From a virus: DNA of 64,000 nucleotides. Below are positions 1,790 through 63,227 of this stretch, one piece after another; within the stretch, counting starts at the first letter, position 1, and each line of letters opens with the position of its first letter. The DNA lies in IMG/VR virus record IMGVR_UViG_3300029267_003532, positions 15,956-79,955 of that record; one strand, given 5' to 3'. A program made the translations under genes and the position numbers. The notes below the pieces were generated by a model. It was given only the letters and a program-made list of their open reading frames with translations. It was not told the DNA's origin and searched no databases.

Positions 1790-2056
1790 CTACTCTCGCT
1801 CGCTCTCAGGCATCTCGTCGGGGTGATCGACCCAGAGCAGGTCGTTCGGGGTGCAGCCGAGGGCATTGCAGATACGGGTGAGGACAGCCAAAGAGATCAT
1901 CTGTTGCTCGTTGGTAGCCATCCGAGAGAGAGTACTGGTTGACACATTGGCTTCTTCGCTGAGCATTCGATAGGTCATTCTGACCCCGCGCCGATCGCCG
2001 GCTAGGGCCATCCTAGAACGTAGTTGAAACCGTGCTTGCCCCATTGTTCCCTCCAT
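1790..2056 (-). CDS. XRE/Cro-C1 HTH repressor (probable immunity repressor)
   Basis: LSEEANVSTSTLSRM...LTRICNALGCTPNDLL; divergent from the early operon. Confidence 0.85.
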   Translation of the reverse strand: MEGTMGQARFQLRSRMALAGDRRGVRMTYRMLSEEANVSTSTLSRMATNEQQMISLAVLTRICNALGCTPNDLLWVDHPDEMPESERE

Positions 2057-2079: not shown

Positions 2080-2109
2080 AGTATACCACGGAAGACGTTA
2101 CGATGTCAA
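2080..2109 (-). promoter_or_regulatory. Leftward sigma70 promoter for the repressor gene
   Basis: Minus strand TTGACA-N18-TATACT with extended -10 TG. Confidence 0.7.
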
Positions 2110-2160: not shown

Positions 2161-2189
2161 TTGACAGAAAGACCAAGATCGAGTATACT
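2161..2189 (+). promoter_or_regulatory. Rightward sigma70 promoter for the early operon
   Basis: TTGACA-N17-TATACT. Confidence 0.8.
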
Positions 2190-2345: not shown

Positions 2346-2888
2346 ATGCTGACCACAGGCCAGCCGCTGACCGCCAATCAGCAAGCAACGCTAGTTGCCC
2401 TGCAACCCTATCTGACCCGCATTGCGCACAACATCGTGCGCACCCACTACCCCGAGCAAGACGCCGACGAACTGCTCCAAACAATGAACGAAGCCATCTG
2501 CGAGCGAGCCGCCCAGGACCCGACCTTCCTCGACCAGACCCCGGGCTACATCACCCGCGCAGCCGCCTGGGCAGCCCGCAACTACTGCCAGCGCGAGCGC
2601 TTTGGCCACAACCTGGTCCCCCAGTCCCTGGACGCCGAAACCGGCGACGATCACACCCTGGCCGAGACGATCCCCGCGCCCCTCGCCGACCTCGATCTGC
2701 CCCTCGACGTCGCTCGCGCCCTGGCCAGGCTCAGTCGCAAGCGCCAACAGATCGTCGCAATGCTGGCCCAGGGTTTCCAGCGCAAAGAGATCGCCGAGCG
2801 CTTTGGCGTCAAATCGCCCAGCCTCACCTGGGACTTGAACAAGATCAAGACCGTGCTGCAGCCGGTCTACGCAGCGGTGAGGAGGTAA
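2346..2888 (+). CDS. Phage-encoded sigma-70 family (ECF-like) sigma factor
   Basis: Region 2-like DADELLQ...YITRAAAWAARNY; region 4 HTH LSRKRQQIVAM...RKEIAERFGV; AGGAGG RBS. Confidence 0.8.
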   Translation: MLTTGQPLTANQQATLVALQPYLTRIAHNIVRTHYPEQDADELLQTMNEAICERAAQDPTFLDQTPGYITRAAAWAARNYCQRERFGHNLVPQSLDAETGDDHTLAETIPAPLADLDLPLDVARALARLSRKRQQIVAMLAQGFQRKEIAERFGVKSPSLTWDLNKIKTVLQPVYAAVRR

Positions 2889-2892
2889 CACG

Positions 2893-3666
2893 ATGGATCA
2901 AGTCTACACGTTCACCTTTACATTCAAGGCCAACGGCCAGATTCGCAAGCAGACCCGCCGCGTGCCCATCGCCGAACTTTGGCAGAAATTTAACCTCGCC
3001 GCAGACTGGCGCCGCGAGGGCGTGCCCGAGGAGAACCGCAGGTCAGAGGTGTATGGCCCCGGTCTCTCCAAGGTCATCTGCGACGAATACGCGCGCCGGC
3101 GGCTGCGCGAAATCCTCGAACCGCTGGGCCTCGTGCCGATCGAGCCAGAGATCATCGGTCTGCTCTGGGCGCGCCTGGCCGGTGAGGATCGCTATCAGCT
3201 TTACAAAATTCGCAAAGAAACCGTCGAGCTCGAGGGCTACGAGCGCCCGCACCTGATCCACCACGGACTGATTCCCGTCTCCGACGACAAGGTCGACGCG
3301 GCATTCTGGTGGTCCACCGAGAAATGCTGGCGCGACCTGGGGATCTGGATCAACGATAGCCCTGGACTGATCATCATGTCGTACGTGAACACAGTCAAGG
3401 TCGCGCTTCAGGACATCCCTCACATTGTGCCCCAGTTGGCCGACGGACAGGTAATCCGCGCATCCGTCCGCTTTGACTACAAGGGCCGGGCCAATCGCTA
3501 CCCATATATGGTTCCTACCCGGATCAAAACGCGGATCAACGATTTACGCGGCCGCTACCCCAACGCGACTGAGGATCTCGCCGTCGTGCCGACATCGATC
3601 CTGCATGCGTCGTATGGCTATGGATTGCCCTCGGCATTGAGTCCCACACCGGCATTCGCAGGATGA
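2893..3666 (+). CDS. Hypothetical protein
   Basis: 257-aa ORF with GGAGG RBS, coupled to the sigma gene. Confidence 0.7.
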   Translation: MDQVYTFTFTFKANGQIRKQTRRVPIAELWQKFNLAADWRREGVPEENRRSEVYGPGLSKVICDEYARRRLREILEPLGLVPIEPEIIGLLWARLAGEDRYQLYKIRKETVELEGYERPHLIHHGLIPVSDDKVDAAFWWSTEKCWRDLGIWINDSPGLIIMSYVNTVKVALQDIPHIVPQLADGQVIRASVRFDYKGRANRYPYMVPTRIKTRINDLRGRYPNATEDLAVVPTSILHASYGYGLPSALSPTPAFAG

Positions 3667-3755
3667 TATATGGATTCGGATCATAATCCAAATGCCCTTG
3701 CTCTATCTTGCCGTTTTTGGTAAGATAGAGTCACAAACAGAACGGATGTGCTACT

Positions 3756-4469
3756 ATGACAAAACTACTGATCACCAAACTGCAAAAGCGGCCCGATGGC
3801 AACGTCGATCTCTTTGGCCGCGGTCATCGCTACAAAGACACGACCCTATTTGACGTGTCCGATCTCTTTGAGGTGGGCATTGACCCCGCCGATCTCCAGG
3901 TCGGTGTCGAGACGCCATGCCGGTTTTATGCGCACTGTGTCGCGTCTTCAAAACTGAACAAGAGCGGAAATCCTTACCTAAACGTCGAATACCTGGAGGC
4001 TGTTTCCAACGGCAACGGCAACGGCAACGGCCACCAGGCCGCGCCCGCCGGCGAACTGAACAGCGCCATTTTGGATGAGCTGCGCGCTGTTCACGGCGAA
4101 CTGACTCAAATGCGCCGGCTGCTCAACCGTGCGTTTGTGGGGCAGGTCATCGACCCGCCGCTCGTAACGGATGACGACCCAACCGAACCGCCCACGGGTG
4201 AGGGAGATAACGACCTCGACGATCCTGACGACGTCCCACGCCCACCTGCTACCAGTGCCCAGCCACTCAGCGACGATCAGGCGCGACGCAACTTTTCCAG
4301 CCTGGCCGGGCCGGCGATCCGCGAGGGCCAAGTCACGTCGGAGGAGGTCAATGAACTGGTCAAAGGTGCTATCGCCACAGGTTGGCGCGACGCGCTCGTC
4401 GAACTGCAGGCGCTGATTGCGCAGGCTGAGAGTGAGCAGGAACGCGAACTCGTTGCAGTTTATCCCTAA
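3756..4469 (+). CDS. Hypothetical protein (acidic linker, NG repeats)
   Basis: 237-aa ORF; possible own promoter TTGCTC-N17-TAAGAT at 3698-3726. Confidence 0.7.
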   Translation: MTKLLITKLQKRPDGNVDLFGRGHRYKDTTLFDVSDLFEVGIDPADLQVGVETPCRFYAHCVASSKLNKSGNPYLNVEYLEAVSNGNGNGNGHQAAPAGELNSAILDELRAVHGELTQMRRLLNRAFVGQVIDPPLVTDDDPTEPPTGEGDNDLDDPDDVPRPPATSAQPLSDDQARRNFSSLAGPAIREGQVTSEEVNELVKGAIATGWRDALVELQALIAQAESEQERELVAVYP

Positions 4470-4496
4470 TTTTCATCGCCCTCATTTGTTATATAG
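4464..4496 (+). promoter_or_regulatory. Putative phage-sigma promoter, copy 1
   Basis: CCCTAATTTT-N10-ATTTGTTATATAG. Confidence 0.7.
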
Positions 4497-4504
4497 ACAC
4501 AACA

Positions 4505-4647
4505 CCTACCCGGTCCGAGACGCGGACTGACCACCGAATCCCCCAGGGTGGGACCGAGGTACAAGCCAGCAAACGCTGGACAACCTGACTGGCCACGAGC
4601 GCGGATTGGACGGCGAGATGACGGAGACCAACGACGGACCGGGTAGG
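4505..4647 (+). ncRNA. Putative structured leader or ncRNA
   Basis: Perfect 13-bp terminal stem (4505-4517 with 4635-4647) enclosing internal hairpins; non-coding and directly downstream of promoter copy 1. Confidence 0.5.
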
Positions 4648-4661
4648 GGAAAGGGGCTTCA

Positions 4662-4952
4662 ATGCTCATCATCCAATCTGCATGTGCCGAACTGATTGTT
4701 AACGTCAAAGACGATGGCTTGACCGACATCGACATGGGTCAGGCTATCACGGCCGCAACCGACTACGTCGCCCAACAATTTCCCGGCGAGGATTGGAAAC
4801 CAGTCGACGTCCAACTCGTCAACTATGATCGCGTTCGGGTCTACTATCGTCGTCCGTTTACCGGAGAGTCCGACCTGGATGAAATCAACGCCCACTATGC
4901 CCGACTGGCTCGTGTGGGCGACTGCTGCCCGCCCGCTCTGGAGCCTGCATAG
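4662..4952 (+). CDS. Hypothetical protein
   Basis: 96-aa ORF with AAGGGG RBS. Confidence 0.65.
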   Translation: MLIIQSACAELIVNVKDDGLTDIDMGQAITAATDYVAQQFPGEDWKPVDVQLVNYDRVRVYYRRPFTGESDLDEINAHYARLARVGDCCPPALEPA

Positions 4953-4961
4953 GAGATTCCA

Positions 4962-5597
4962 ATGAAACTTCAAGTTGCACACATCAATCCATCCTCCTAC
5001 GTCGACGGCCCCGGCCAGCGTGCCGTCCTCTACCTGGCCGGCTGCCCGATCCGCTGCCCTGGCTGCCAGTCCCCGTATCTCTGGGACGAGAATGCCGGCG
5101 CCGCAACGGACGTCGACCAAGTGGCCGCCTGCCTGCTCGACACCGGTCTGCCGATCACCATCTCCGGCGGCGAGCCCTTCGCCCAGGCACCCGCCGTGGC
5201 CGAGTTACTCGTCGATCTGCGCATCCAGCAGCCCGACCTGCACATCATCGTCTACACCGGCTTTGTGGTCGAAGACATTCTCGACGCCATAGCTCCCGCG
5301 ATGCCCGAAGCGTGGGTTATCCTCCACGCCGCCAACGTCCTCGTCGACGGTCCGTTCCAACCCGAGGACGACCACGACCAGGTGCAGTGGCGCGGCTCCA
5401 GTAACCAGCGTCCCATCGACCTGCGCGCGACGTGGGAGCGAGCCTGGCGTTCCCTGGCCCTACTGGACTGGGATGCGCAGACCCTGACGATCACCGCAGA
5501 CGGCGACCTGCTCGGCGCCGCCGGCACGATGGACGACCTATTCGGATCACCAGCCCTGGTCCCCACGCGTATGTGCGGCCAGGTCAGAACAATCTAG
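4962..5597 (+). CDS. NrdG-like radical SAM 4Fe-4S protein
   Basis: CPIRCPGC (CxxxCxxC), ISGGEPF, LVDGPF, WRGSSNQR. Confidence 0.85.
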   Translation: MKLQVAHINPSSYVDGPGQRAVLYLAGCPIRCPGCQSPYLWDENAGAATDVDQVAACLLDTGLPITISGGEPFAQAPAVAELLVDLRIQQPDLHIIVYTGFVVEDILDAIAPAMPEAWVILHAANVLVDGPFQPEDDHDQVQWRGSSNQRPIDLRATWERAWRSLALLDWDAQTLTITADGDLLGAAGTMDDLFGSPALVPTRMCGQVRTI

Positions 5598-5614
5598 CTG
5601 TTTCTCCTCCTGTT

Positions 5615-5662
5615 GGGGGTGCCGGGGGTGGTGTGGCAGCCATTCCCGGCCCCTCGTATTTT
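5615..5662 (+). terminator. GC-rich hairpin, possible terminator after the radical SAM gene
   Basis: GCCGGGGGTGG...CCATTCCCGGC stem followed by TATTTT. Confidence 0.4.
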
Positions 5663-5665
5663 GGC

Positions 5666-5698
5666 CCCTAATTTTGGGGCCGCTCATTTGTTATAGAT
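5666..5698 (+). promoter_or_regulatory. Putative phage-sigma promoter, copy 2
   Basis: CCCTAATTTT-N10-ATTTGTTATAGAT. Confidence 0.7.
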
Positions 5699-5754
5699 AT
5701 AGATTGTGAACCTAATCTGAATGAGCAACCGAACAGGCCAAACAGGAGAACAAC

Positions 5755-7053
5755 GTGAGCGTCAAAATCGAGGACAACCCGATGGACACAGCCCAAGTTA
5801 TTGCCGAAGCCAAGAGCATTATCAACCAGCGCCGCCGCGAGGCCGCCGAGCGGATGGGGGTGGACGAAAGCAAGGTCCAAACGCACCGCATCGAGCTACG
5901 TCGGCTCCGCGAGGCCGGTCTCCTGATTGACCTCGACATCCACGGCGTCTCGATGTTCAGCGTTCGCACGACCTACGCAGAGCTGGGCATCGGCGCAGAG
6001 GACGTCCGTGCCAAGCGGATGCGGGCAGGTACCAAGGACCTCTTTCCAGAATACAGCAAAAAGCTGCGCTCCCTCGAGGGCCGCGCGCGCCAGAACCTCG
6101 CCAAGCATTCACACTCGATCCCGGCCTTCGGCCAGTACCGGTGGCTTCCGTGGACAGCTTACCAGGCTTACTCGGACAAACACACCCAGATACTCGCCGA
6201 GCTCGATGCGACCAAGGCGGAATTGCTCGCCAAGTACGACGAGTTGCGCGAGGAAAACCGCGCCTACTTTGAGCAGGTCGCCCTGCGCGCCTGGCAGGAC
6301 CTGCGCGCCGGATTCTCATATCCGGACAGCGGCATGATCGTTACCACCGATCATACCGAGTTTGGCCCCGGCGAAGAGGGCAAGTTCGTCGAATACGTGG
6401 TTCAAAAAGTCCTTGGCCGGATGCCTCTCCCGGACGAAATCCGCGACGGCGTGCGCATCGACTACAAGACCTCGATTCTCTACTCCGAGGCCGAGATCGC
6501 CGCCGACCAGTCCGCGCTCGAACAGGCTGAGGCCGAGTACGCGCAGGCCCGGTTTCAGCACGCGCAAGCCGAACAGGCTGCCTTCGACGTCCACCTCCAA
6601 GAGCGCGAGGCCGAGGGCCAAGTCCAAGCTCGCATCGCTGCCTATCGCCGGGCCGAGCTCGAGCACGCGCGCCAACAGCTCGCCGAGATGGGCAGCCCCA
6701 TCCAGGACGCCCTCGACGGCCTGCGTGCCAACTTGTACGACGCTGTACGCACGCTGCTGGCCGGCCTGCGCAAGAACACCACGTTTCGCGGCAAAGCCGG
6801 CTCCAAGGCCGCCGACCTGTATGCGTACTGGCACAAGTTGAACGGGGGACTGCTCCACGATGCCGACTTGGAGCAAGCCCTGGCCGCCTTGGACGGCGAG
6901 ATGAAGTCCTACCAGGTCGCCGACAAAGACGCCCGGCAGACGCAGATCGGCGACATCGAGACCCAACTCGCCGAGATCGCCGCCCTGACCGCCGAATCCG
7001 CGCGCAAGATTCGCAGCGAGTCGGGCAGCAGAGCTTCGGTCCTGGAATTGTAG
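5755..7053 (+). CDS. Helical coiled-coil protein (DUF3150-like), ends in SRASVLEL
   Basis: 432-aa ORF, AGGAG RBS, alpha-helical. The DUF3150 resemblance is tentative. Confidence 0.7.
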   Translation: MSVKIEDNPMDTAQVIAEAKSIINQRRREAAERMGVDESKVQTHRIELRRLREAGLLIDLDIHGVSMFSVRTTYAELGIGAEDVRAKRMRAGTKDLFPEYSKKLRSLEGRARQNLAKHSHSIPAFGQYRWLPWTAYQAYSDKHTQILAELDATKAELLAKYDELREENRAYFEQVALRAWQDLRAGFSYPDSGMIVTTDHTEFGPGEEGKFVEYVVQKVLGRMPLPDEIRDGVRIDYKTSILYSEAEIAADQSALEQAEAEYAQARFQHAQAEQAAFDVHLQEREAEGQVQARIAAYRRAELEHARQQLAEMGSPIQDALDGLRANLYDAVRTLLAGLRKNTTFRGKAGSKAADLYAYWHKLNGGLLHDADLEQALAALDGEMKSYQVADKDARQTQIGDIETQLAEIAALTAESARKIRSESGSRASVLEL

Positions 7054-7055
7054 CG

Positions 7056-7376
7056 ATGATGATCGTATTACGCAACACGACCAGCCGCAAGGACGCGGTG
7101 TACATCATTGAGGTGGACGAGGACAACCAAAAGGTGGCCGGTTGGTGGGGGCGCTGGGACACGTACCAAGCCCACGGCCTGGCTGGCCTGCGCAGTCAGA
7201 TGAAATGGGACGGGCCATCCTATCAGAACGCGGCGGACAAGCTGCTGCGCCAAAAGCTAGAAAAAGGATATGTCCCCGTCGATCAACTGCCGGCATCTGT
7301 GTCGACGCCCGCGGCGCCCGATCCTAACCCGCCATCGCCCCGCCCGCGTTCACGGGCGGCAATGCTGGAGCTATAG
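7056..7376 (+). CDS. WGR-domain protein, ends in SRAAMLEL
   Basis: WWGRW motif and KLLRQKLEKGY, typical of WGR domains. Confidence 0.75.
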   Translation: MMIVLRNTTSRKDAVYIIEVDEDNQKVAGWWGRWDTYQAHGLAGLRSQMKWDGPSYQNAADKLLRQKLEKGYVPVDQLPASVSTPAAPDPNPPSPRPRSRAAMLEL

Positions 7377-7922
7377 ATGTCAAACCTGGTACAGCTTGAT
7401 TTCCTGACAATGATCCACTTGCCTCCTGTATGGACAGCGCCAATTCCCAGTGGATACGGACATTGGTGCTGTCCTCATTGTCACGATGCCGCCAGGGGAT
7501 TTGAAGCCCCTTTATCGTTCCCTGCCACAAACAATCGCCAAATAGGTCAGTGCCGAACCTGTAACTATGAACATCACTTCAGCCTGCTTTATGGTCAAAC
7601 TCCAAACGGGTATCCTGAGACGCGCATGGATTTAGAGCAGGCCCATATCGCAGCTCACATTCGAACCGGGTTCCCCAAGATTTGCCCGGCTGGTCACGCG
7701 AATCCCGTTTGTATGGCAAATTGTGAGTCGTGTCCGCACCATCAAGCTGACGCGCGCTTGCACTGGCGCTGTAACCATCCGGCTTATCAAAAAGCGATTG
7801 GTGTACATTGGTGTCTAGGTTGTGGTATGGAACTTGGCCCTTGGGCAGAGGCTCATAATTGGCATTACTGCGGTGGGCCAACCAACCAATGCATGAGAGA
7901 TTGGGAGATAACAAATGGATGA
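7377..7922 (+). CDS. Cys-rich (zinc-finger) hypothetical protein
   Basis: Several CxxC pairs. Confidence 0.6.
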   Translation: MSNLVQLDFLTMIHLPPVWTAPIPSGYGHWCCPHCHDAARGFEAPLSFPATNNRQIGQCRTCNYEHHFSLLYGQTPNGYPETRMDLEQAHIAAHIRTGFPKICPAGHANPVCMANCESCPHHQADARLHWRCNHPAYQKAIGVHWCLGCGMELGPWAEAHNWHYCGGPTNQCMRDWEITNG

Positions 7923-8115
7923 ACGCACTCGCAACCGATTTGCCGCCAAGTTTGGTCTGCCTGCTGGACAGGTCCGAACGTTCGACGCGTTGACCGCGCA
8001 CGAAAAAGAGGACGTGCGCCGCTACTACTCCCTCTACAATGCACGACACTATGTCTACGCCATCAAGCGCGCTGGCGGATTGGTCGTGAAACGGTTCCGG
8101 CTCAATACCGCTTAG
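7915..8115 (+). CDS. Hypothetical protein
   Basis: 66-aa ORF with GGAG RBS. Confidence 0.6.
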   Translation: MDERTRNRFAAKFGLPAGQVRTFDALTAHEKEDVRRYYSLYNARHYVYAIKRAGGLVVKRFRLNTA

Positions 8116-8134
8116 GATCATAATCCAAATCTAT

Positions 8135-8167
8135 CCCTAATTTCTAGCCTTCCCGTTTGTTATATAG
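8135..8167 (+). promoter_or_regulatory. Putative phage-sigma promoter, copy 3
   Basis: CCCTAATTTC-N10-GTTTGTTATATAG. Confidence 0.7.
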
Positions 8168-8191
8168 GTACAACTACAGGAGGGACAAACG

Positions 8192-9766
8192 ATGAACGTG
8201 AACAAACTGACCGCCATTCAACAAGCTGACGTCTTTATCCGCGCTCGCTACCCTGGGCTCTTTATCCGCTCGCAAGAGGAAGCGCGGGTCGAATCGGCCA
8301 TTCGCGGCCTACTCGCGACCGGCAAGCACGCCCACAAGGAGGTCTTGACCTGGACCATCAGCCGGGGTGTGCGCCTGGCCGACGCGCCGGCAGAGGAATA
8401 CGGGCCAACCGATCCGATCAGCGCCCTGCAGTGGTTCGCCGGTTATGGCGTCACCGAGGAAAAGCCCGCCGGCACACCGGCGGTCGCCATCTTCAAGGAC
8501 CTCGATCCCTATTTCCAAGACCCCCGCGTTGTTCGCGCTCTGCGCGACCTGATCGCCGACATCACCAGCACCCAGCGCACGCTGATCGTCATTTCCCCAA
8601 CACCCAACGTGCCCGAATCCTGCAAGCGCCAGGTTGCCATGATCGACTGGGCGCTTCCCACGGTCGACGAGCTGGCCGGCATGCTGGGCGACTTTATCGC
8701 CGACCTGCCTGACCGCGTACAATGCGACCTGAACGGCGACAAGGAGCAGGTTGCCAAGGCACTCTGCGGCCTCACCTGGTTTCAGGCCCAGTCGGTACTC
8801 GCCACCGCCGTGATTGCCACCGGCAAGCTGGACGGGGCTGCAATCGAGTTCATCATTTCGGAAAAAGCGCGCCTTGTCCGTGAATCCGGGCTCCTCGAGT
8901 TCTACCTGCCCGACAACCTGCCCGACATCGGCGGCCTGGATGAACTCAAAACCTACATCTCGCGTAGGCGCCGCTCTTTCACGGACAAGGCCCGCGACTA
9001 TGGCGTACCCACGCCCAAGGGCTTGCTCCTTGTCGGCGTGCCCGGCTGCGGCAAATCGCTGGCCTGCAAGTCACTCTCCAAGCTCTGGCGGCTGCCCCTG
9101 GTCCGCCTCGACGTCGGCGCGCTAATGGGCTCCCTGGTCGGCCAGTCAGAGGCCAACCTCCGCCAGGCGCTGCAAGTCGCCGAGTCATCCAGCCCCTGTA
9201 TCCTCTGGCTGGACGAGATTGAAAAGGGCCTCGCCGGCGTCAAGTCGAGTGGGCAAACCGATGGCGGGACCACCGCCCGCGTTTTTGGCGCGCTGCTCAC
9301 CTGGCTCCAGGAAAAGACCGCGCCGGTTTACATGGTCGCAACCAGCAACGACATCAGCGCGCTGCCGGCAGAGCTGCTGCGCGCCGGACGTTTCGACGAG
9401 ACCTTTTTCGTAGACCTGCCCAACACGCAGGAACGCCGAGAGATTTGGACCATCCACGTCGCCAAAGCCGGCCGCAATCCGGCCAACTTTGACCTCGAGG
9501 CCTTGGTCCAGGCCAGCGACGGCTATACAGGTGCAGAGATCGAAGCCGCAGTCGGCGACGCTTTGATCGCCGGTTTTGACCAGGATCGCGAGATCACTAC
9601 CGGCGACCTGGTCACAGCCATTGCGGGCCGCGTGCCCCTGACCGAGACGATGGACACGCAGATCAACGCCCTGCGCAAATGGGCTGCCCGGCGCGCCAAG
9701 CCGGCCAGCAGCGCCCAAGCCGGCCAGGCCGAGTCCAAGAGCCGCGCCGCGACACTCGACTTATAG
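8192..9766 (+). CDS. Ycf46-like AAA+ ATPase, ends in SRAATLDL
   Basis: Walker A GVPGCGKS, Walker B ILWLDEIEK, SRH ELLRAGRFD; degenerate N-terminal AAA domain (ARYP..EE.R, FKDLD). Confidence 0.9.
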   Translation: MNVNKLTAIQQADVFIRARYPGLFIRSQEEARVESAIRGLLATGKHAHKEVLTWTISRGVRLADAPAEEYGPTDPISALQWFAGYGVTEEKPAGTPAVAIFKDLDPYFQDPRVVRALRDLIADITSTQRTLIVISPTPNVPESCKRQVAMIDWALPTVDELAGMLGDFIADLPDRVQCDLNGDKEQVAKALCGLTWFQAQSVLATAVIATGKLDGAAIEFIISEKARLVRESGLLEFYLPDNLPDIGGLDELKTYISRRRRSFTDKARDYGVPTPKGLLLVGVPGCGKSLACKSLSKLWRLPLVRLDVGALMGSLVGQSEANLRQALQVAESSSPCILWLDEIEKGLAGVKSSGQTDGGTTARVFGALLTWLQEKTAPVYMVATSNDISALPAELLRAGRFDETFFVDLPNTQERREIWTIHVAKAGRNPANFDLEALVQASDGYTGAEIEAAVGDALIAGFDQDREITTGDLVTAIAGRVPLTETMDTQINALRKWAARRAKPASSAQAGQAESKSRAATLDL

Positions 9767-9770
9767 AAAT

Positions 9771-9803
9771 CCCTAATTTTTGGTCTGCCCATTTGTTATA
9801 TGG
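9771..9803 (+). promoter_or_regulatory. Putative phage-sigma promoter, copy 4, within a 14-bp inverted repeat
   Basis: CCCTAATTTT-N10-ATTTGTTATATGG. Confidence 0.7.
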
Positions 9804-9827
9804 GCAGACCAAACCAAGGAGGATAAC

Positions 9828-10235
9828 GTGAGCAAATATCGGAAACTCAAGACCAAATTCACCAGCCGCGTGCACCTGCGCGAGGCGCTCCAAGCCACCG
9901 GCTTGCCTTTCGAAGAGGCCCGGCCTGGTCAGGCCCTGACCCTCAACGGATACGGCGGGCAGCGGCGCGAAGCGACCTTTGTAGTCCGCAAGCGGGCGCT
10001 GGGCGCACGATACGGCGACTTTGGCTGGCAGTGGGATCCCGCGACCAAGGGTTTTACTCAGATTGAGGATGATCTCGACGCCGGCCATCTGCCCGTTCAG
10101 CAGAACCTGCAGGCCATCAAGCGCGAGTATGCCTACGCTGCGACCGTGACACAGGCGAGGGTAAAGGGCTACCAGATTCGTCGCATCGACCTGCCGTCAG
10201 GCGAGATTCAAATCCAGGTTACAGGGAGGATCTAA
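9828..10235 (+). CDS. DUF1257-like protein
   Basis: GTG start after AGGAGG; SKYRKLKTKF...LREAL, YGDFG, and YA...ARVKGY pattern; adjacent to the Ycf46-like ATPase. Confidence 0.75.
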   Translation: MSKYRKLKTKFTSRVHLREALQATGLPFEEARPGQALTLNGYGGQRREATFVVRKRALGARYGDFGWQWDPATKGFTQIEDDLDAGHLPVQQNLQAIKREYAYAATVTQARVKGYQIRRIDLPSGEIQIQVTGRI

Positions 10236-10456
10236 TGCAGGCATTCACATTGACGATCACCATCAGCGTTGACGGCGAGACCGTTGTGGGCGAGGTCTCT
10301 GGGATCAAAGGCAAGCGTTGCTCTGACATCGCGGCACTGCTCGACAAAGTCGGCGACGAGACCGAACATCGGCACACTGCGGACTATGACGCAGTCGAGC
10401 CGGTTCAGATCAATGCCGGCATCGGCAGCACCTTGTCCTTGGATCGTAACGGATAG
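10235..10456 (+). CDS. DUF2997-like protein
   Basis: ITISVDGETVVGEVSGIKGKRC...TADY pattern. Confidence 0.75.
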   Translation: MQAFTLTITISVDGETVVGEVSGIKGKRCSDIAALLDKVGDETEHRHTADYDAVEPVQINAGIGSTLSLDRNG

Positions 10457-19896: not shown

Positions 19897-21716
19897 GCTT
19901 CCTCCGAAACAAATGTCAGCACGCGCGCTTTGGACGTCCATCCCAATGTTCGCGCAGTTGATACAAAACTCAACGTCCGCGCCTTGGATACAAACGCCTT
20001 CGCCACAGGAATCGTACCAATGTAGACAAGTGCGGTCCCAAATCCAGAATCTGACGCGATTCCGCTCGGTAGAATCGCGACGATACCGACAAGCAGGGAG
20101 ATCACGCCAAAGTCACCCGCACTCACGATACCGACCGGAGAAATTTGCAGGTCTAGCGACGATAACCCAAATACTTCGGAGCTTTCCAATCCGCTTGGCG
20201 TCAATATTCGTGTGCCCGGCAGAACCTGACTTGTCCCAAAGCCCCCGCTCGTTTCTATTCCACTTGGCTGGAGCAGCGTTATCCCTATACCTACTGTCAC
20301 GGACCCAAACGTAGCCCCACTGAGGATGCCAGAAGGAAGTAGCGATACTACACCGGGTGACAATACAGTCGACCCAAACTCAGCGCCCGCCGCAATCCCG
20401 CTTGGTTGGAGCAGCGCTGCACCTGTACTTATTATTGCAGACCCAAATGCAGCTCCACTGAGGATGCCAGAAGGAAGTAGCGATACTACACCGGGTGACA
20501 ATACAGTCGACCCAAACTCCGCGCCCGCCGCAATCCCGCTTGGTTGGAGCAGCGCTGCACCTGTACTTATTATTGCAGACCCAAATGCAGCTCCACTGAG
20601 GATGCCAGAAGGAAGCAATGATACAGCGCCGGGCGATAAGACTGTTGATCCAACGTTTTCCGCACTGGGCAGACCAGCTACAGCCAGCCATAGCCCCAGC
20701 GTCGCCGAACCAAACGTCTCCGCACTTACTATCCCTGACGGCGACAACGATACTGCCCCAGGGGCCAGCGTCGCCGCCCCGATGCCCTCTTCGCTCGTTA
20801 CGCTTGACGCCATCAGGCTTACAGATCCAGGAGACGCAGTATGCGATCCTACGATCTCGCTACTGACAATACCATTACTCAGAAGGGCTACCGCACCGGG
20901 TGACACGATCCCCGCCCCGAACGTCTCGCCTGTGGCCACCCCGCTCGCCACCAGCGTTTGTCCCCCTGTCCCTGCTGCGTACCACACCCGCCTCCGTGGC
21001 CACGCGTACAATTCCCACCGCGTCTCCGGTGCATACATCGACCGAATCACAGTCGCAGGCAATGCGCGGTTGTATAAGCGAGGCTCTGCCATATAAGCCG
21101 TGTTCAGCGCATTTCCACCACCGTACATTGCCCCGAGTGTAATACCCGTATTTCCGTTATCAAATGAACTGCTGTATGTAGCTGAATTGATCTCTTCTCC
21201 ATTCACGTACAACCGGCTTGTTACCCCGTCATATGTTGCTGACAGCAACGTCCATGCGCTGGAAGGCACTGCATTCGCAGCATCCAAGTTCTGTACTCCA
21301 CCGGATGTGTCAACTTTCCATCTCACTCCGTATGGAGCTACCGCATCCGTCGCCCACTGTAGGCATGTGCTCCAATTCCCATTGGACATCATCACGTCAA
21401 AATTCGCCCTGGTACCTGGCTGATACAGCCACACTGACATGGTGATTTCGAGCAGCCCAGACAACGATATGTCCGCCTCAAAGTACCGTGAATTGTTAAA
21501 TGCAGGTACCTGCCCGAGCGAGGTAGACGTCCATGCCGGCGAGTTATACCCCGCCAAGTGCCGGCCACGACCGGACACATCACGGAGCCTGCTGGCCCCG
21601 GCACTCAGCAGCGTTGGCCACCACCCCGCCAACCCAGCCGCCTGTGGCGACTCCCAATTGACTCCCATCCACACATTCGGTGGATGCCGGAACGGCCACC
21701 CGCCCCGAATCGACAC
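19893..21716 (-). CDS. LamG/ConA-like domain tail fibre with SGI.S...FG repeats
   Basis: WTLLSATYDG...LYVNG...RLYNRAL LamG signature; ~23-aa repeats; GTG start overlaps the upstream stop. Confidence 0.8.
   Translation of the reverse strand: MSIRGGWPFRHPPNVWMGVNWESPQAAGLAGWWPTLLSAGASRLRDVSGRGRHLAGYNSPAWTSTSLGQVPAFNNSRYFEADISLSGLLEITMSVWLYQPGTRANFDVMMSNGNWSTCLQWATDAVAPYGVRWKVDTSGGVQNLDAANAVPSSAWTLLSATYDGVTSRLYVNGEEINSATYSSSFDNGNTGITLGAMYGGGNALNTAYMAEPRLYNRALPATVIRSMYAPETRWELYAWPRRRVWYAAGTGGQTLVASGVATGETFGAGIVSPGAVALLSNGIVSSEIVGSHTASPGSVSLMASSVTSEEGIGAATLAPGAVSLSPSGIVSAETFGSATLGLWLAVAGLPSAENVGSTVLSPGAVSLLPSGILSGAAFGSAIISTGAALLQPSGIAAGAEFGSTVLSPGVVSLLPSGILSGAAFGSAIISTGAALLQPSGIAAGAEFGSTVLSPGVVSLLPSGILSGATFGSVTVGIGITLLQPSGIETSGGFGTSQVLPGTRILTPSGLESSEVFGLSSLDLQISPVGIVSAGDFGVISLLVGIVAILPSGIASDSGFGTALVYIGTIPVAKAFVSKARTLSFVSTARTLGWTSKARVLTFVSEEA
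20317..20615. repeat. 138-bp tandem repeat (~2.2 copies)
   Basis: CCACTGAGGATGCCAGAAGGAAG at 20317, 20455 and 20593; near-identical units. Confidence 0.9.
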
Positions 21717-22448: not shown

Positions 22449-22682
22449 TCACAACACCTCATTCAACCGCCGCAGCTCAATCTCATCCAACCGCACCACC
22501 CCCTCCTGCAGCGCCCATACAGCTAGCTGCACTCGGTTCTCCAACCGGACCTTGCGCAGAATGTTCGTCATGTGATTCTTGACCGTGTGATACCGGATAC
22601 CTAGCCGTGCAGCCAACTGGCGATTATCCAGACCCCTCACAACTAACCGCACGATCTCGGACTCGCGCAGCGTCAGGGTCAT
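22449..22682 (-). CDS. Stand-alone LuxR-type HTH protein
   Basis: LTLRESEIVRLVVRGLDNRQLAARLGIRYHTVKNHMTNILRK...NRVQLA. Confidence 0.85.
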   Translation of the reverse strand: MTLTLRESEIVRLVVRGLDNRQLAARLGIRYHTVKNHMTNILRKVRLENRVQLAVWALQEGVVRLDEIELRRLNEVL

Positions 22683-23146
22683 TGCATCGGCGCCCGCCAC
22701 GCTGTCGGCTGAGGAGGATATGCTGGCTGCTGCGGATACGCCGTCGCAGTAGGATATGGCGACTCTGTTGGATACGCTGTGGGCAGCGCAGGGCATTCCA
22801 CTGGCCTACACGTAGGAAGCGGTCGAGGTGTCAGCGTTGGTCGAGGTGTCAGCGTTGGTTGAGACGTCAGCGTTGGAGCTGGCGTCCATGTTGCCGAGCA
22901 GTCGATCTGCCCTGGACAATCGTGAAACCATGGAGTAGCCAGACTTGTTGTCGCAGTCGGTTCCGCAGAAGGCACGGTCGACGTAGGCATTGCCGCCGAC
23001 GTGCAAGTCGGCGTCCCGATAGGCGAGATGGGAGAATCGCTCTGCGCAAGCAGCGACCCCGCATTTCGCTCACACACAGTAACCAGTGTTAGCACAACCG
23101 TTAACGCCAATAGTGTTGCGCCTAAGGCCCAAGATTTGATAGACAT
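22679..23146 (-). CDS. Secreted or membrane-anchored Pro/Thr-rich protein
   Basis: N-terminal hydrophobic segment; PTLT repeats; AAGGAG RBS. Confidence 0.65.
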   Translation of the reverse strand: MSIKSWALGATLLALTVVLTLVTVCERNAGSLLAQSDSPISPIGTPTCTSAAMPTSTVPSAEPTATTSLATPWFHDCPGQIDCSATWTPAPTLTSQPTLTPRPTLTPRPLPTCRPVECPALPTAYPTESPYPTATAYPQQPAYPPQPTAWRAPMQ

Positions 23147-31878: not shown

Positions 31879-33280
31879 TTGGCGGAGGCTCCTTGGTTGT
31901 CTCATTCGGCCACCATGGACCGGGATGTCCCTCCAATGGATCAAGGTAGAGCAATGGTTCAAACTTGCACCACCCCTGACGCAGGCTCCATTCTTTACGC
32001 ATCTGCGTTCTGGCCCACAGCGCCCGGTTGTGGAGGGTCAACTCGGTGATCAGCCGCTTGCCCTCGATCTTCCACTGCGCGATCTCGCGCTGCCGGTGTT
32101 TCGGCTTCCATTTGCGCTGAATCTCCATTGAGCCAAAATCGAAATAGATCGCATAGTCCTTGAATTTCTCCAAGTGCACGCGCAGGTCAAAGTTCAGGGC
32201 AAGCAAATTTCCGCCCAGCACTGCGGCCTCGATCACTGTAAGCCCACACGTCTCCGAGATGGATGGATGTGCATAGACGTTGGTCAGGTAGAATAGCTCG
32301 CCGACCACGCGTGGGTCGACGCCGGCGACAAAGCGGTCGTCGATCTCGGACGCAAAGTGCAGCCACGAGCGGATATTCAACTTCTCGGCCAAGTCACAGC
32401 AATATCGCTTGTACTCCATAAACTCTTCGCCGAGGCTCTGCCAATCGACGCCGATCAAGCAGCCCGTATAACCAGAATCCTTGACGCCAGCCAGCAACAT
32501 AATGATCTTGTGGATCTGCTTGGAACGCCCCATCCGTGCCGGGTAGATCATCCCGACGTCGGCCTCCAACAGGCCGGTCGCACGCGCGATCTTGAGCGTC
32601 TCTGGTCGAAACTGCCACTTGTGCAGCAGATCCACGGCGTGGGCGGAATCACAGCACACCGAGCGCCAGGGCTCGCCGGCCAGGCGATAGGACCGGTCTA
32701 CGTATGCCTTCTCTGAGTAGTTTGGATAGACAAAGTATCCCGGCGCAGCCAGCCCCCGGCACATCTCTGGGTAGGTCATTGGTGTGACCTGGGTCGGCGT
32801 GGAATGCACCCAGTGCAGCCATACCAGACCCGGCAGCCGCTGGGCCACGCGTCGCATAGCGACGTTGTGTTCGTGGTACACGTCGAGCAGTACAATGTCG
32901 TGCGTGATGCACACGTTCACATCCTGGAGATTCTCATAGAGAACCTCTTCAATCTGGGCGACGCGCTTCTCAAAATCATCAGCTATGCCCTGCACGAGGT
33001 GCAGGGGAGGGATCACCGGACGGAGATCGATTTTGGCCCGGTCCCACACACCCGGGGGGGACGCAGTCTGGAATGGGACCAATGTGTCTGGCCCAGACGT
33101 CTGGCGAACCGGCATACCCTCTTGCACCAGCACACGCACCGGGTTGTAGCCATGCTCCATCAGCATGCGGATTTGGTTGGTCGCAACTGTGACAATGCTG
33201 TAGCCGGTATCCGTCGTATAAAATGTGGTCAGGAGAGCAACTTGTGGCCTTGACTTTCGACGTCTAACTTGTATCTGCAT
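31871..33280 (-). CDS. GT-B (GT4-like) glycosyltransferase
   Basis: YPARMGRSKQ, HPSISETCGLTVIEAA. Confidence 0.8.
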   Translation of the reverse strand: MQIQVRRRKSRPQVALLTTFYTTDTGYSIVTVATNQIRMLMEHGYNPVRVLVQEGMPVRQTSGPDTLVPFQTASPPGVWDRAKIDLRPVIPPLHLVQGIADDFEKRVAQIEEVLYENLQDVNVCITHDIVLLDVYHEHNVAMRRVAQRLPGLVWLHWVHSTPTQVTPMTYPEMCRGLAAPGYFVYPNYSEKAYVDRSYRLAGEPWRSVCCDSAHAVDLLHKWQFRPETLKIARATGLLEADVGMIYPARMGRSKQIHKIIMLLAGVKDSGYTGCLIGVDWQSLGEEFMEYKRYCCDLAEKLNIRSWLHFASEIDDRFVAGVDPRVVGELFYLTNVYAHPSISETCGLTVIEAAVLGGNLLALNFDLRVHLEKFKDYAIYFDFGSMEIQRKWKPKHRQREIAQWKIEGKRLITELTLHNRALWARTQMRKEWSLRQGWCKFEPLLYLDPLEGHPGPWWPNETTKEPPPNA

Positions 33281-37021: not shown

Positions 37022-40000
37022 CTATACCCCACCCGGGACAATGCTGTGCAACCCGGCGCTTTGCGTGACCTCGTCGAGCAGTTCGCGCAAGAACCCGCCG
37101 GCGTCGCGTCCATCGCGCACGTTCGGGAACGATTGCTCGCCAATCTGAATCACAACGACCGGGCTGTTCTCGAGCTGCCCGCCTGTAGTCGCCGACGCTG
37201 GTACAAGATCCGATATACCCAACTGAAAATTCAGCGCGCGCTGCATTGCCGGCAGCAATCCGGTCAGCCGCTTTACGTTCTCCGCTGCACCCGCAAACGT
37301 CATTTCAATCGGAGAGGGGGAATTGTGCTGTGCCCACTTTGGAAGCGTCCAGCCTTCAAACTTTTCTTTTAACCTGACGATGTAATCCAGCCAGTTTTTA
37401 GCCGACTGGGTCAGATTGTCGAATACAAGCAGCACTGGATCTAGGATATTCAATTTGGCGTTGCTCAACGCGTCTATCAATGTATTCCAGCTCTCGAGGA
37501 GCGTTGTGCCTAGCCATGAATCCAGTGCCTCGATTGCCTTGACAAAGTTGTCATTGATAAAAGTGACAATCTCGTCAAAGATGGGCTTGATGTCTTCCTC
37601 GACAAAATCCCACACATCTTGCAGTGCAGGAAGAAGCGTTTCGCTCCATGCTCCGGCCAGCAGTTCGGCGGCCTTGAGAACCGTGACTTCGAGCAGCTCG
37701 CGCAGGGCGTCGAAGAGGGGATGAAGATCCTCCTCAAGGAATCGCCTTCCTCGTTCCCACATCGGAATCAGCGTCTCATCCCACACGGTTTGCAGTGTGG
37801 CGATTCCTTCGGGTATCTTTGTCTCCAGGAACTCGAGCAACGTGCCCAGGATCGGAACTTCTTTGAGGTCTTCCCACCATTCGCCGAACTTTTGGGCGAC
37901 CAAGCGTTTGCCCTCGTCGAACCAAGTCGCGATCTTTGTCTTGGCCGTGTTCAGGTATCCCTGTGCCTTTTGAGGCAGCGTAGAGAAAAAGCCCTCGACC
38001 TCTCCACGAATTCCCTGAAACTCTTCAGAGAACCCGCCGAACTCGAGATCTAGTCCAACCTTGGCCCCCTCGCCGCCAACCTGGAGGTTACTCAACGCGG
38101 ACAGCGCATCGCTGACGCCGCTGACCTTGTCGGCCAGCTCAGACATCGCGTCAACCATCTCGCGTTGGATGTCTGCCCCATCCTGGAGCGCCGCCAGGTA
38201 TTCCTGCTGCCACGAAACTGCATCCTCAGCGGCCTGGGCCTCTCCCTCGGCAGATTCCAACTTTTGGCGCAGTGCGTCAGGAATAAACCCCGCCGCTTCA
38301 GCATCGGCGACCTCGGACTGCACTGCCTGGAGGTTCTTCATCGCCTTCTGATGTTCGAGCGTCAAGCGAATATACTTGGTGTATTCTTCGCCGCCCTCGC
38401 CCAGGCGTTCGGCAATTCCAGAGAGCACTTCCTCGTTGACCTGGCCTGTCTCTCGGAATCCGGCGATTACCTGGGCCACCTCTGCGCGCACCTCGCGGAA
38501 CGTGCCGAGCATTTCGTCCTGGTCCATATCGCCCAATGAGACCGCCGTCTCCAGCGCCGACCGGATCGGGGCCAGCGTGTCGCGCAAGATGCCAAAATCC
38601 GCAAGCGCGAACGACTGGAGGTACGTGTCCATCAGGTTCTTGCCCCACTTGACGATGGAGGCAAGCGGACCTTCTTTCGGCGGTGAGAACGAGGCGAGGA
38701 AACGAGAGATCATCGTGCCGATGAACGTCACGGCTTGCTTGAGCACTGTCCGGCCGGCATTGACGATGCCCTGTCCGAACGATACGATCAAGTTCCAGCC
38801 CCACTGAAGCGCACCTTTGACATGCTTGCGCCACACGAGCACGATCATGGTCACGACGTTGAGCGCGGCGTCGCGCAGAGGGACCATCGCCTGATCGGCG
38901 CGACCCTCGAGGAGCAGTCGTAGAGATTCGAGTAGAGACTGAAACGTGCTCAGCACGACCGCGGCGGCATCGTTGATCGTGAGCAGAAACTCGCGGATAC
39001 CGACCCCGCCCTGGAACAGACCGCGCAGTCGGGCAAAGAAGGGCTCAATCGTGTTGCGCACGAGACCCTGGAAGGTCTCTTTCAGCGCCGCAAAAGACTG
39101 CTTGATCTGGTTGGCCCAGAACCGGATCGTCTGCATGATCTGATCGAGCGTGGGCTTGACGTAGGCAATCACGCCCTCGACCGTGGTGCGCAGTCCGCCC
39201 CAGTCTTCTTTCCACCCGCGCGCAAGCATCTTGCCCACGGCAGCCAGGGCGACAATCGCCGCCACGACCCCCGCAATGATCGGAAGGATCGGCCCCAGGC
39301 TAGCCGCGCCCGAGATACCCAGCATCTTGAGCCCGGCGCTCACCGACCCAAGCATCGCCTTCAACTTGGGCAGCATGCCGATGACCGTGATCACCGGCCC
39401 AGCCACCGCGCCCAGCCCAGCGCCTGCCACGGCGATGCTCGCCACGGCTCGCTTGATCGGTTCAGGGATACGATCCCACAGCCCGATCAGCGACGTCAGC
39501 AGGTCAGCCATCCTGCCAGCAGCCGGGGCAAACAGCTTTTTGATGTCGTTGCCCATGTTGCGAATACTGGCCCGCGCGCGTGCGATCTTGGTCGCATTCG
39601 TCTCAGTAACTTCGCCAAAGAATTCGCTCTGACGTGCAGCCGCTTCTCTGGTGGCCGTCAGGATCGCAAGCTGTTGTTGCTCGCGTGAAAGTTGGTTTGC
39701 CTCCACGCCAATGCTCTTAGCATAACGTTCCTTAGCCTCGGCCTCAGAGACGATCAGGCCCAGATCGTCCAAGCGCGCGGCGGACCCACGCGCCAGGCCC
39801 AGCGCCAACTGCTCATAGAGTTCAGAAAAGCCCTTGCCAGTTGCCTCTGCAGCCGTCGCCACAGAGTTGAGCATCCAGCCCATTTCTTTCATCGGGTCGA
39901 TGCCGGCCAGGGCCAAGGCGTTGGCTTTGCTCATCAACTCGGCTTCGTCTACGACACCCCGGCTGGCTTCCTGCCAATCTCCGAGCATCTCACCAGCATT

Positions 40001-63135: not shown

Positions 63136-63189
63136 GCCTACCTCCTAGTGCCCCCCCAACCATTAAAGCTGACAGAAAATGTCAGCTTT

Positions 63190-63219
63190 ATTATACCAAA
63201 TGGTATAGATTCAAGTCAA
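63190..63219 (-). promoter_or_regulatory. Late promoter 1 with palindromic operator
   Basis: TTGACT-N18-TATAAT, extended -10, TATACC-N4-GGTATA. Confidence 0.8.
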
Positions 63220-63227
63220 GGGAAATT

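Follow-up and report, generated by a model that had tools for sequence, protein, structure and literature searches.

We analysed a stretch of 64,000 nucleotides (nt), hereafter the window, which corresponds to bases 15956-79955 of the IMG/VR viral contig IMGVR_UViG_3300029267_003532 (79,955 bp, ~92% complete according to CheckV). This contig, called G000 below, comes from sediment and seawater metagenomes, and the sequencing runs listed for the region are DNA metagenomes. It stems from a tailed phage that may be temperate or plasmid-like; elsewhere, the contig carries genes for ParM-like, FtsK-like and DnaA-N-domain proteins, methylases, RusA and a tape-measure protein. At the locus studied here, a gene at 2346-2888 on the plus strand would encode a sigma factor of 180 amino acids (aa), and a motif made of two conserved boxes recurs at gene junctions further to the right. 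These junctions precede a leader followed by a radical S-adenosylmethionine (SAM) activase-like gene, a block headed by the gene of a 432-aa protein, the gene of an AAA+ ATPase, and a pair of DUF1257 and DUF2997 genes.

The motif reads CCCTAATTTY-N10-RTTTGTTATA, and its positions are numbered 1 to 30 through box 1, the N10 spacer and box 2. The initial annotation of the window had reported four plus-strand copies at gene boundaries, and an exact pattern scan confirmed them at 4464-4493, 5666-5695, 8135-8164 and 9771-9800, for a chance expectation of 0 and with no match in 100 shuffles. It had also stated that there were no copies elsewhere in the window. This was confirmed, a scan allowing up to three mismatches finding no match beyond the four. 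A fifth exact copy is present outside the window, at contig positions 10430-10459, 5.5 kb 5' of it. We refer to this upstream copy as P1 and to the copies at 4464, 5666, 8135 and 9771 as P2 to P5. All five are on the coding strand, each just 5' of a GGAGG-type ribosome-binding site and a start codon, and the distance from the end of the motif to the start codon is 35 nt for P1, 168 nt for P2 (with a structured leader in between), 59 nt for P3 and 27 nt for both P4 and P5. In P1 (contig 10430) and P2 (4464), the TAA within box 1 also serves as stop codon for the gene before it (3756-4469 in the case of P2).

From 15 sites of G000 and its relatives, we built a weight matrix and scanned both strands of G000 with it. 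The five sites scored 44-48 bits, against 3 bits or less for the next best position and a maximum of 10.9 bits in shuffled genomes. Given this gap between the five sites and the next best score, the motif set is sharply bounded, and the scan revealed neither weak copies nor any copy in the leftward structural (late) block. The spacer had been described as fixed in length and variable in sequence. Its length is indeed fixed, but its sequence is not entirely free, as its 3' part is constrained (C/Y/C at positions 18-20) and positions 12-13 are mostly G in the 15 sites.

The layout of the motif is like that of promoters read by extracytoplasmic function (ECF) sigma factors, which adhere tightly to a consensus with AAC at -35, a T tract beside it and, across a spacer of 14-17 bp, CGT at -10 (Gaballa et al., PMC5758882). 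Here, TAA(T/C) at positions 4-7 is followed by a T tract and, after 16 nt, by (C/T)GTT at positions 24-27. From TAAY to YGTT, the spacing is 16 nt in 15 of the 16 distinct sites of G000 and its relatives and 17 nt in the remaining one, in line with the short rigid spacer of ECF promoters. Their close adherence to consensus is found as well, the boxes being 89-95% identical within a genome. The features of housekeeping promoters are missing: T at -7 is absent from all ten sites of G000 and its closest relative G001, box 1 is unlike TTGACA, and the two hexamers would be spaced by 19 nt. A sigma70 promoter scanner called none of these ten sites, yet it called the promoter in front of the sigma gene.

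A divergent sigma-like protein and its expression

The gene at 2346-2888 (+) is predicted to encode an ECF-type sigma factor. An AlphaFold2 model of the 180-aa protein, made with an alignment of its homologues as input, has a mean predicted local distance difference test score of 80.5. It displays a sigma2-like three-helix domain (residues 10-88), a disordered linker (88-112) and a sigma4-like four-helix domain with a helix-turn-helix (HTH; 117-179), i.e. the two-domain architecture of ECF sigmas, with a short linker and neither region 1.1 nor region 3. When the model was compared with the PDB using Foldseek, sigma factors occupied all of the top 50 ranks listed, and the best matches among those listed were the ECF sigmas SigL, SigE, SigH, AlgU and RpoE, over the full length and with a probability of 1.00. 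The low template-modelling scores (~0.33) are explained by the two domains being free to orient relative to each other. The protein is also matched by PHROG 1740 ("sigma factor", E 3.9e-5). It has 14 homologues (40-77% identity), all metagenomic, and 13 of the 14 show a collinear match to TIGR02937 (sigma70-ECF) below cut-off. For the protein itself, TIGR02937 gives 23.5 against a cut-off of 42.9 and Pfam Sigma70_r4_2 gives 24.0 against 25.7, with no match to region 2. On the strength of the model and these profiles, the product of 2346-2888 would be a divergent ECF-type sigma at best. Phage sigmas are usually too divergent for ECF classification (Casas-Pastor et al., PMC7826278). The sigma profile had no match when 185,579 species genomes were scanned.

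This gene is the only sigma- or RNA polymerase-like gene common to the relatives described below, and it is intact in G000, G001 and a third lineage, L032. The only other sigma4-like open reading frame (ORF) of the contig encodes a GerE/LuxR-type HTH protein (22449-22796, minus strand, 115 aa, Pfam E 4.3e-16). It was rejected as reader of the motif, having no counterpart in G001. The gene sits among small leftward genes, and its product is a possible late-gene regulator. Promoters for a T7-like RNA polymerase were also rejected, as no gene for such an enzyme was found in a search of the contig. The same applies to a MerR-type distortion of the spacer, whose sequence is not conserved, and to a direct repeat formed by box 1 and the 3' part of the spacer, which exists in G000 only.

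The sigma gene is divergent from a gene encoding an 88-aa Cro/C1-type HTH protein (1790-2056, minus strand; Pfam HTH_26 E 2.3e-11, HTH_3 E 7.4e-08), probably the repressor of a switch region. Between the two genes, a consensus scan predicted two sigma70-type promoters, each with 11 of 12 consensus bases: TTGACA-18-TATACT with a TG element for the HTH gene (2080-2109, minus strand), and TTGACA-17-TATACT about 155 nt 5' of the sigma start (2161-2189, plus strand). The latter is probably an early promoter of the sigma operon, read by the host machinery. The same divergent pair exists in G001, where the counterpart on the sigma side is TTGACA-18-TACAAT, and near-consensus TTGACT...TTTGGTA(T/C)AAT promoters are also found elsewhere in both genomes. 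The typical, though not obligatory, context of ECF sigma genes, with an autoregulatory promoter and an adjacent anti-sigma gene, is not seen here: no anti-sigma signal was obtained among the neighbours of the sigma gene by Pfam, PHROG and protein-atlas look-ups.

Motif variants in related phages

G001 is the sole relative in IMG/VR. This 61-kb genome encodes a sigma with 73% identity and is syntenic with G000 from the switch region to RusA. A scan of metagenomes with the sigma alignment provided four more informative contigs. L033 is the end of a 50.8-kb contig and holds the sigma from residue 61 onward (70% identity). L032 and L034 (~3 kb each) are identical over their promoter regions and encode a sigma that is ~50% identical, and the sigma of L030 is ~65% identical.

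The relatives with promoter regions each carry their own version of the motif. In G001, five sites of the form CTCTAA(T/C)TTY-N10-nnnCGTT(A/T)TA occupy the five corresponding gene junctions. The counterpart of P1 in this genome has its start codon only 18 nt after box 2, so transcription would have to start within ~7 nt of that box. In L033, four sites (CTCTAATTTT-N10-ATTCGTTATATTA) precede the leader and radical SAM gene, the 432-aa gene, the AAA+ gene and the DUF1257 gene. The predicted promoters P2 to P5 thus have counterparts at 32945, 33730, 36481 and 38118 in G001, and at 3181, 6074, 8221 and 9928 in L033, respectively. The two sites of L032/L034 (CCCTAACTT-N14/15-CGTTATA(A/C)T) lie right after the sigma gene and before the radical SAM gene. 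Across these lineages, the -35-like element is TAAC in both L032 sites and in one G001 site and TAAT in the other 12 or 13, while the -10-like element is CGTT in all 11 sites of G001, L033 and L032 and TGTT in all five sites of G000.

Beyond these phages, exact-pattern scans of IMG/VR with three variants of the motif gave single scattered matches, on contigs with no sigma homologue save the known relative G001; these matches were judged to be due to chance. Loci with distant homologues of the AAA+ protein (32-41% identity) had neither motif nor sigma. When the 185,579 species genomes were scanned with the 432-aa protein, one match was obtained, on a scaffold of a Planctomycetota metagenome-assembled genome (L087, QNBU01000052.1). 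This scaffold encodes distant homologues of the 432-aa, AAA+, DUF1257 and DUF2997 proteins (40-58% identity) and does not include the sigma region. At the positions of P4 and P5 (1255-1287 and 3727-3759), it has a repeated promoter-like motif of its own with the same overall geometry, CTTTACATTT...TTTATAAT, which can also be written CTTTACATTT-N..-GCGATTTTGATTTATAAT and reads TTTACA-N19-TATAAT. L087 may point to the host, or it may be a phage contig binned in error.

We then compared the sites of G000, G001 and L033 without gaps. Between orthologous promoters of different genomes, identity is 88% for box 1, 44% for the spacer, 82% for box 2 and 35-37% for the 25-nt flanks. Between different promoters of the same genome, the corresponding values are 95%, 45%, 89% and 28-32%. 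The two boxes stand out as islands of conservation, with a similarity that is greater among the sites of one genome than among orthologous sites. Position 24 illustrates this concerted change: it is T in 5 out of 5 sites of G000 and C in 11 out of 11 sites of the three other lineages. At position 2, G000 and L032 have C, whereas G001 and L033 have T. Most simply, the reader of such genome-specific variants would be encoded by the phage, because G000 and G001 share the same TTGACn...TGnTAnAAT promoters and the host machinery therefore looks the same for both. As both boxes vary, a sigma would also be more economical than an activator, which accounts for one box only.

Four residues of the sigma are specific to G000 where the three other lineages agree, among 115 shared columns: N79 (D in the others), Q82 (R), R128 (T) and V170 (A). 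N79 and Q82 belong to helix 3 of the sigma2 domain, which in sigma70-family proteins is the helix that reads the -10 element at its upstream edge, and the base changes specific to G000 are in box 2. In another homologue of the sigma, P0002 (29.9 kb), these two residues are N79 and R82. In box 1, position 2 tracks two sigma4 residues, Q142 and T161 in G000 and L032 versus A and A/S in G001 and L033. Co-variation of motif and sigma across related phages had been put forward as a check of the initial annotation. In the tracking of box 2 with N79/Q82 and of position 2 with Q142/T161, each character corresponds to one event, which makes it a lead and not a test. This co-variation, read from alignments, is anecdotal. 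That the phage group forms a natural series of diverging orthogonal sigma/promoter pairs, with the C to T change at position 24 of G000 accompanied by D79N and R82Q, is a rather doubtful proposal for now. If it were true, a residue-to-base specificity code would become accessible for ECF-like sigmas of a phage branch that had not been classified before. The promoters would be hybrids, with a -35 element and T tract as in bacterial ECF systems and a TGTATA-like -10 element as in phiEco32, and the regulon would be that of a conserved AAA+/DUF1257/DUF2997/radical SAM module also found on a Planctomycetota-binned scaffold.

Candidate readers of the motif and comparable systems

We consider it fairly probable that the five sites are middle promoters read by the ECF-type sigma of the phage, whose own gene would be expressed from a promoter of host type within a Cro/CI-like switch region. 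In this scheme, the host RNA polymerase with its housekeeping sigma would first transcribe the sigma operon from TTGACA-17-TATACT, and the phage sigma would then direct the host core polymerase to the five sites. Its sigma4 domain would read box 1 (CYCTAAYTT with the T tract) and its sigma2 domain box 2 (YGTTATA), 16 nt further, with transcription starting a few nt past box 2. Five units would be switched on in this way: two small proteins behind P1, the leader with a 96-aa ORF and the radical SAM gene, the block of the 432-aa and WGR-like proteins, the AAA+ ATPase, and DUF1257/DUF2997 with the genes that follow. The pairing is economical, as it joins the only phage sigma to the only non-housekeeping motif, and what is generally expected of a promoter class specific to a phage sigma is observed, namely a phage sigma together with an over-represented motif confined to the upstream regions of one gene block. 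The initial annotation had attributed its four promoters to the sigma at 2346-2888. The promoter reading remains the best-supported one for a set of five rather than four, and so does the assignment to this sigma, in favour of which are the ECF fold, its being the only shared sigma, the ECF-like geometry and the concerted boxes.

Several observations weigh against this interpretation. The 180-aa protein scores under every curated cut-off tested (TIGR02937, PF04542, PF08281 and PF07638). No copy of the motif precedes its gene, in contrast to most autoregulated ECF sigmas. The boxes deviate from the ECF consensus, with TAAT instead of AAC in three of the four lineages and TGT instead of CGT in G000. 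All relatives are syntenic, so the co-occurrence of sigma and motif counts as one observation and not four. Moreover, the sigma ORF of L033 (1-360) has one extra nt before the sigma4 HTH, which continues in the +1 frame after it, and the four promoters of this contig are intact. L030 (1639-2100), from the same study as L033, shares the extra base and diverges completely 20 nt further on, pointing to an insertion or rearrangement, or to chimeric assembly. The frameshift of L033 may have arisen in assembly or be a recent lesion, or it may indicate that the sites are read by another protein.

The last of these options leads to the scheme of T4 MotA/AsiA, Mu Mor/C or lambda CII, in which the sites would be middle promoters used by the host housekeeping sigma at box 2 with a phage activator at box 1, the 180-aa protein being that activator or serving other promoters. 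A frameshifted sigma beside intact promoters would then be harmless in L033. Box 2 itself also speaks for such a scheme and against the phage sigma as reader: in G000 it can be read as an extended -10 (TGnTATAnn) that resembles TTTGGTATAAT of the sigma70-type promoters of the phage, and in L033, L032 and L087 the hexamer at positions 27-32 (TATATT, TATAAT and TATACT) is a good housekeeping -10. The G001 sites, however, lack TG, T at -7 and a -35 element and would be very poor housekeeping promoters, and hexamers at positions 2-7 and 27-32 imply a spacer of 19 nt in any case. Box 2 also changes in concert within each genome while both phages keep the same sigma70-type promoters. As for the activator, the MotA/AsiA system was rejected, PF09114 and PF09010 giving no match in the contig, a search of unproven sensitivity in that the control genomes were silent too; the conserved neighbours of the sigma gene (257 and 237 aa) offer no DNA-binding lead beyond a weak hint of an OB (oligonucleotide/oligosaccharide-binding) fold. 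We therefore judge an activator-dependent scheme unlikely.

A host alternative sigma of the ECF type, induced by the stress of infection, could also read the sites, given their ECF-like geometry (PMC5758882), and the phage sigma would then have other targets. This is highly improbable in our opinion: the box variants are specific to each genome while the sigma70-type promoters do not differ in type, a repeat-motif search of the window revealed no other promoter-like repeated motif to pair with the phage sigma, and this solution is less economical than the joining of the only phage sigma to the only non-housekeeping motif. It is also very unlikely that the sites are not promoters at all, but sites for a repressor, partition or recombination protein, or signals for RNA processing or termination. 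Two copies do overlap stop codons, and a dispersed palindrome (see below) suggests that the phage uses protein sites located at junctions. In addition, a GGCCCC/GGGGCC hairpin at P3, which has box 1 in its loop, obtains a terminator-like score, and box 2 of P5 is bracketed by an 11-bp inverted repeat (9781-9811; TGGTCTGCCCA ... TGGGCAGACCA). The repeat at P5 is kept in G001 (38128-38157), with a compensatory change in its innermost pair, and is absent from L033; it may act as an operator or form a hairpin in the read-through AAA+ messenger RNA. These hairpins are common neither to all copies nor to the relatives, though, and signals of this kind account poorly for the strict orientation, the fixed two-box geometry with a variable spacer, the AT-rich TATA-containing box 18-61 nt 5' of start codons and the absence from the leftward late block.

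Assignment to the phage sigma can also be set against known systems. The promoters of Bacillus subtilis sigmaW and sigmaV (tGAAACnTTTt ... CGTA) have a comparable layout, with an AAC-like triplet, a T tract directly after it, a spacer of ~16 nt, (C)GT at -10 and a tight consensus (PMC5758882). They differ from the present sites in the TAAT of three of the four lineages, in the TGT of G000 and in the ATA that follows GTT and lengthens box 2. In addition, the G000 sigma is distinct from bacterial ECF systems in that it is not autoregulated, has no neighbouring anti-sigma that we found and scores below ECF cut-offs.

Among phages, phiEco32 (gp36) and 7-11 also have a small divergent ECF-like sigma whose gene is read by the host polymerase from sigma70-type promoters (PMC4331800; PMC5333181), as is predicted here. 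The middle/late promoter of the phiEco32 sigma, TAATGTATA, was determined experimentally and recovered computationally for phage 7-11 (PMC4331800). In these phages too, a short near-invariant motif marks genes of a later class, and its TGTATA core is near the TGTTATA/CGTTATA found here. Promoters of the phiEco32 type were reported to be without a recognisable -35 element (PMC5333181), whereas a second, equally conserved box is present here at a fixed distance. Two other differences are that no anti-sigma or inhibitor of the host RNA polymerase was identified in G000, and that G000 looks temperate or plasmid-like from its Cro/CI-type, ParM- and FtsK-like genes. In SPO1, gp28 and gp33/34 likewise replace the host sigma at two-box promoters with middle and late timing (PMC9429907). 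In contrast, one sigma was found in G000, with five sites in a rightward early/middle block and none in the late structural block. The middle promoters of T4 (MotA box with a sigma70 -10 element) are alike in that a phage-specific box stands in for the -35 element, ahead of a -10-like element rich in A and T. They are set apart by the lack of a MotA/AsiA match here (the controls being silent as well), by the absence of T at -7 in G000 and G001, and by a box 2 that co-varies with the phage genome.

Phage sigmas with private promoter classes are thus already known from SPO1, phiEco32 and 7-11, and the general picture of transcription control in phages would be unchanged. What is distinctive here is the two-box, ECF-like architecture along with clear natural specificity variants. 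If the sigma reads the sites, the temporal programme of the phage can be read directly from its sequence, and a two-box example joins the few phage ECF-like sigmas with known promoters. The five units would contain the majority of the conserved but functionally uncharacterised genes of the group (AAA+, DUF1257/DUF2997, 432-aa and radical SAM), which would define a co-regulated module for functional study. The sigma and its promoters would also form a compact pair with natural variants, of the type used as orthogonal switches.

Downstream units and other repeated elements

The genes 3' of P1 are a 101-aa ORF followed by a small membrane ORF. The P2 unit (4662-5597, plus strand) comprises the 96-aa ORF and the radical SAM activase-like gene at 4962-5597 (Pfam Fer4_12, E 3.9e-28; PHROG 626). 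On the same strand, the P3 unit (5755-8115) encodes proteins of 432, 106, 181 (cysteine-rich) and 66 aa, with Pfam matches absent or sub-threshold; the P4 unit (8192-9766) encodes the AAA+ ATPase of 524 aa (Pfam AAA, E 5.6e-28, with AAA_lid_3); and the P5 unit begins at 9828-10456 with DUF1257 (9828-10235, E 2.2e-09) and DUF2997 (10235-10456, E 1.1e-05). The radical SAM/Fer4_12, AAA+, DUF1257 and DUF2997 labels first given to these genes are therefore supported by Pfam. The WGR label of the 106-aa protein has a sub-threshold match only (E 0.12), and "DUF3150-like" has no Pfam support: no Pfam family matched the 432-aa protein, which shows 71-80% identity with its counterparts in the relatives.

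The P2 transcript would begin with a 5' leader (4494-4660, plus strand) closed by a 13-bp stem (predicted fold of -59.4 kcal/mol, z -1.95). Most aligned columns are conserved between this leader and positions 3211-3400 of L033, against ~35% likeness for the flanking intergenic DNA, and there are one compensatory pair and one broken pair between the two. There is no counterpart in G001, where another gene takes its place, and no Rfam match in the window or the leader. This stretch of ~165 nt between P2 and the 96-aa ORF/radical SAM gene is a candidate cis-regulatory RNA.

The dispersed element mentioned above is an imperfect palindrome of ~28 nt with the core TTAGGATCATAATCCAAAT, present in at least 10 copies in the window (repeat families D4/D5; 285, 1688, 3668, 8105, 17747, 30067, 36565, 40252, 43737, 55762 and 62537), mostly at gene junctions and in both the early and the late blocks. 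One copy (8105-8132) lies directly 5' of P4, and a weaker one is found in the 5' untranslated region behind P3 (5696-5725). Palindrome-like elements also occur upstream of the corresponding promoters in G001, L033 and L087, including the P4 counterparts. The palindrome is probably the site of a second DNA-binding protein, and it may be an operator or a "stoperator"-like site for the Cro/CI-type protein or another regulator.

Some further elements were noted in the window. A sigma70-like promoter, TTGCTC-17-TAAGAT (3698-3726, plus strand), lies inside an inverted repeat before the gene at 3756-4469, whose product has an OB-fold-like N-terminus; in G001, the promoter at this place is TTGACT-18-TATGAT. 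A 138-nt unit occurs three times in tandem at 20235-20648, with 74-81% identity between the copies. Finally, two near-identical strong sigma70-type promoters (TTGACTTGA...TTTGGTATAATAAAGCTGAC) are located near both ends of the contig, at 63160-63221 of the window and at contig positions 3920-3970 (both on the minus strand), and each of them precedes a 171-aa paralogue; G001 has one such unit.

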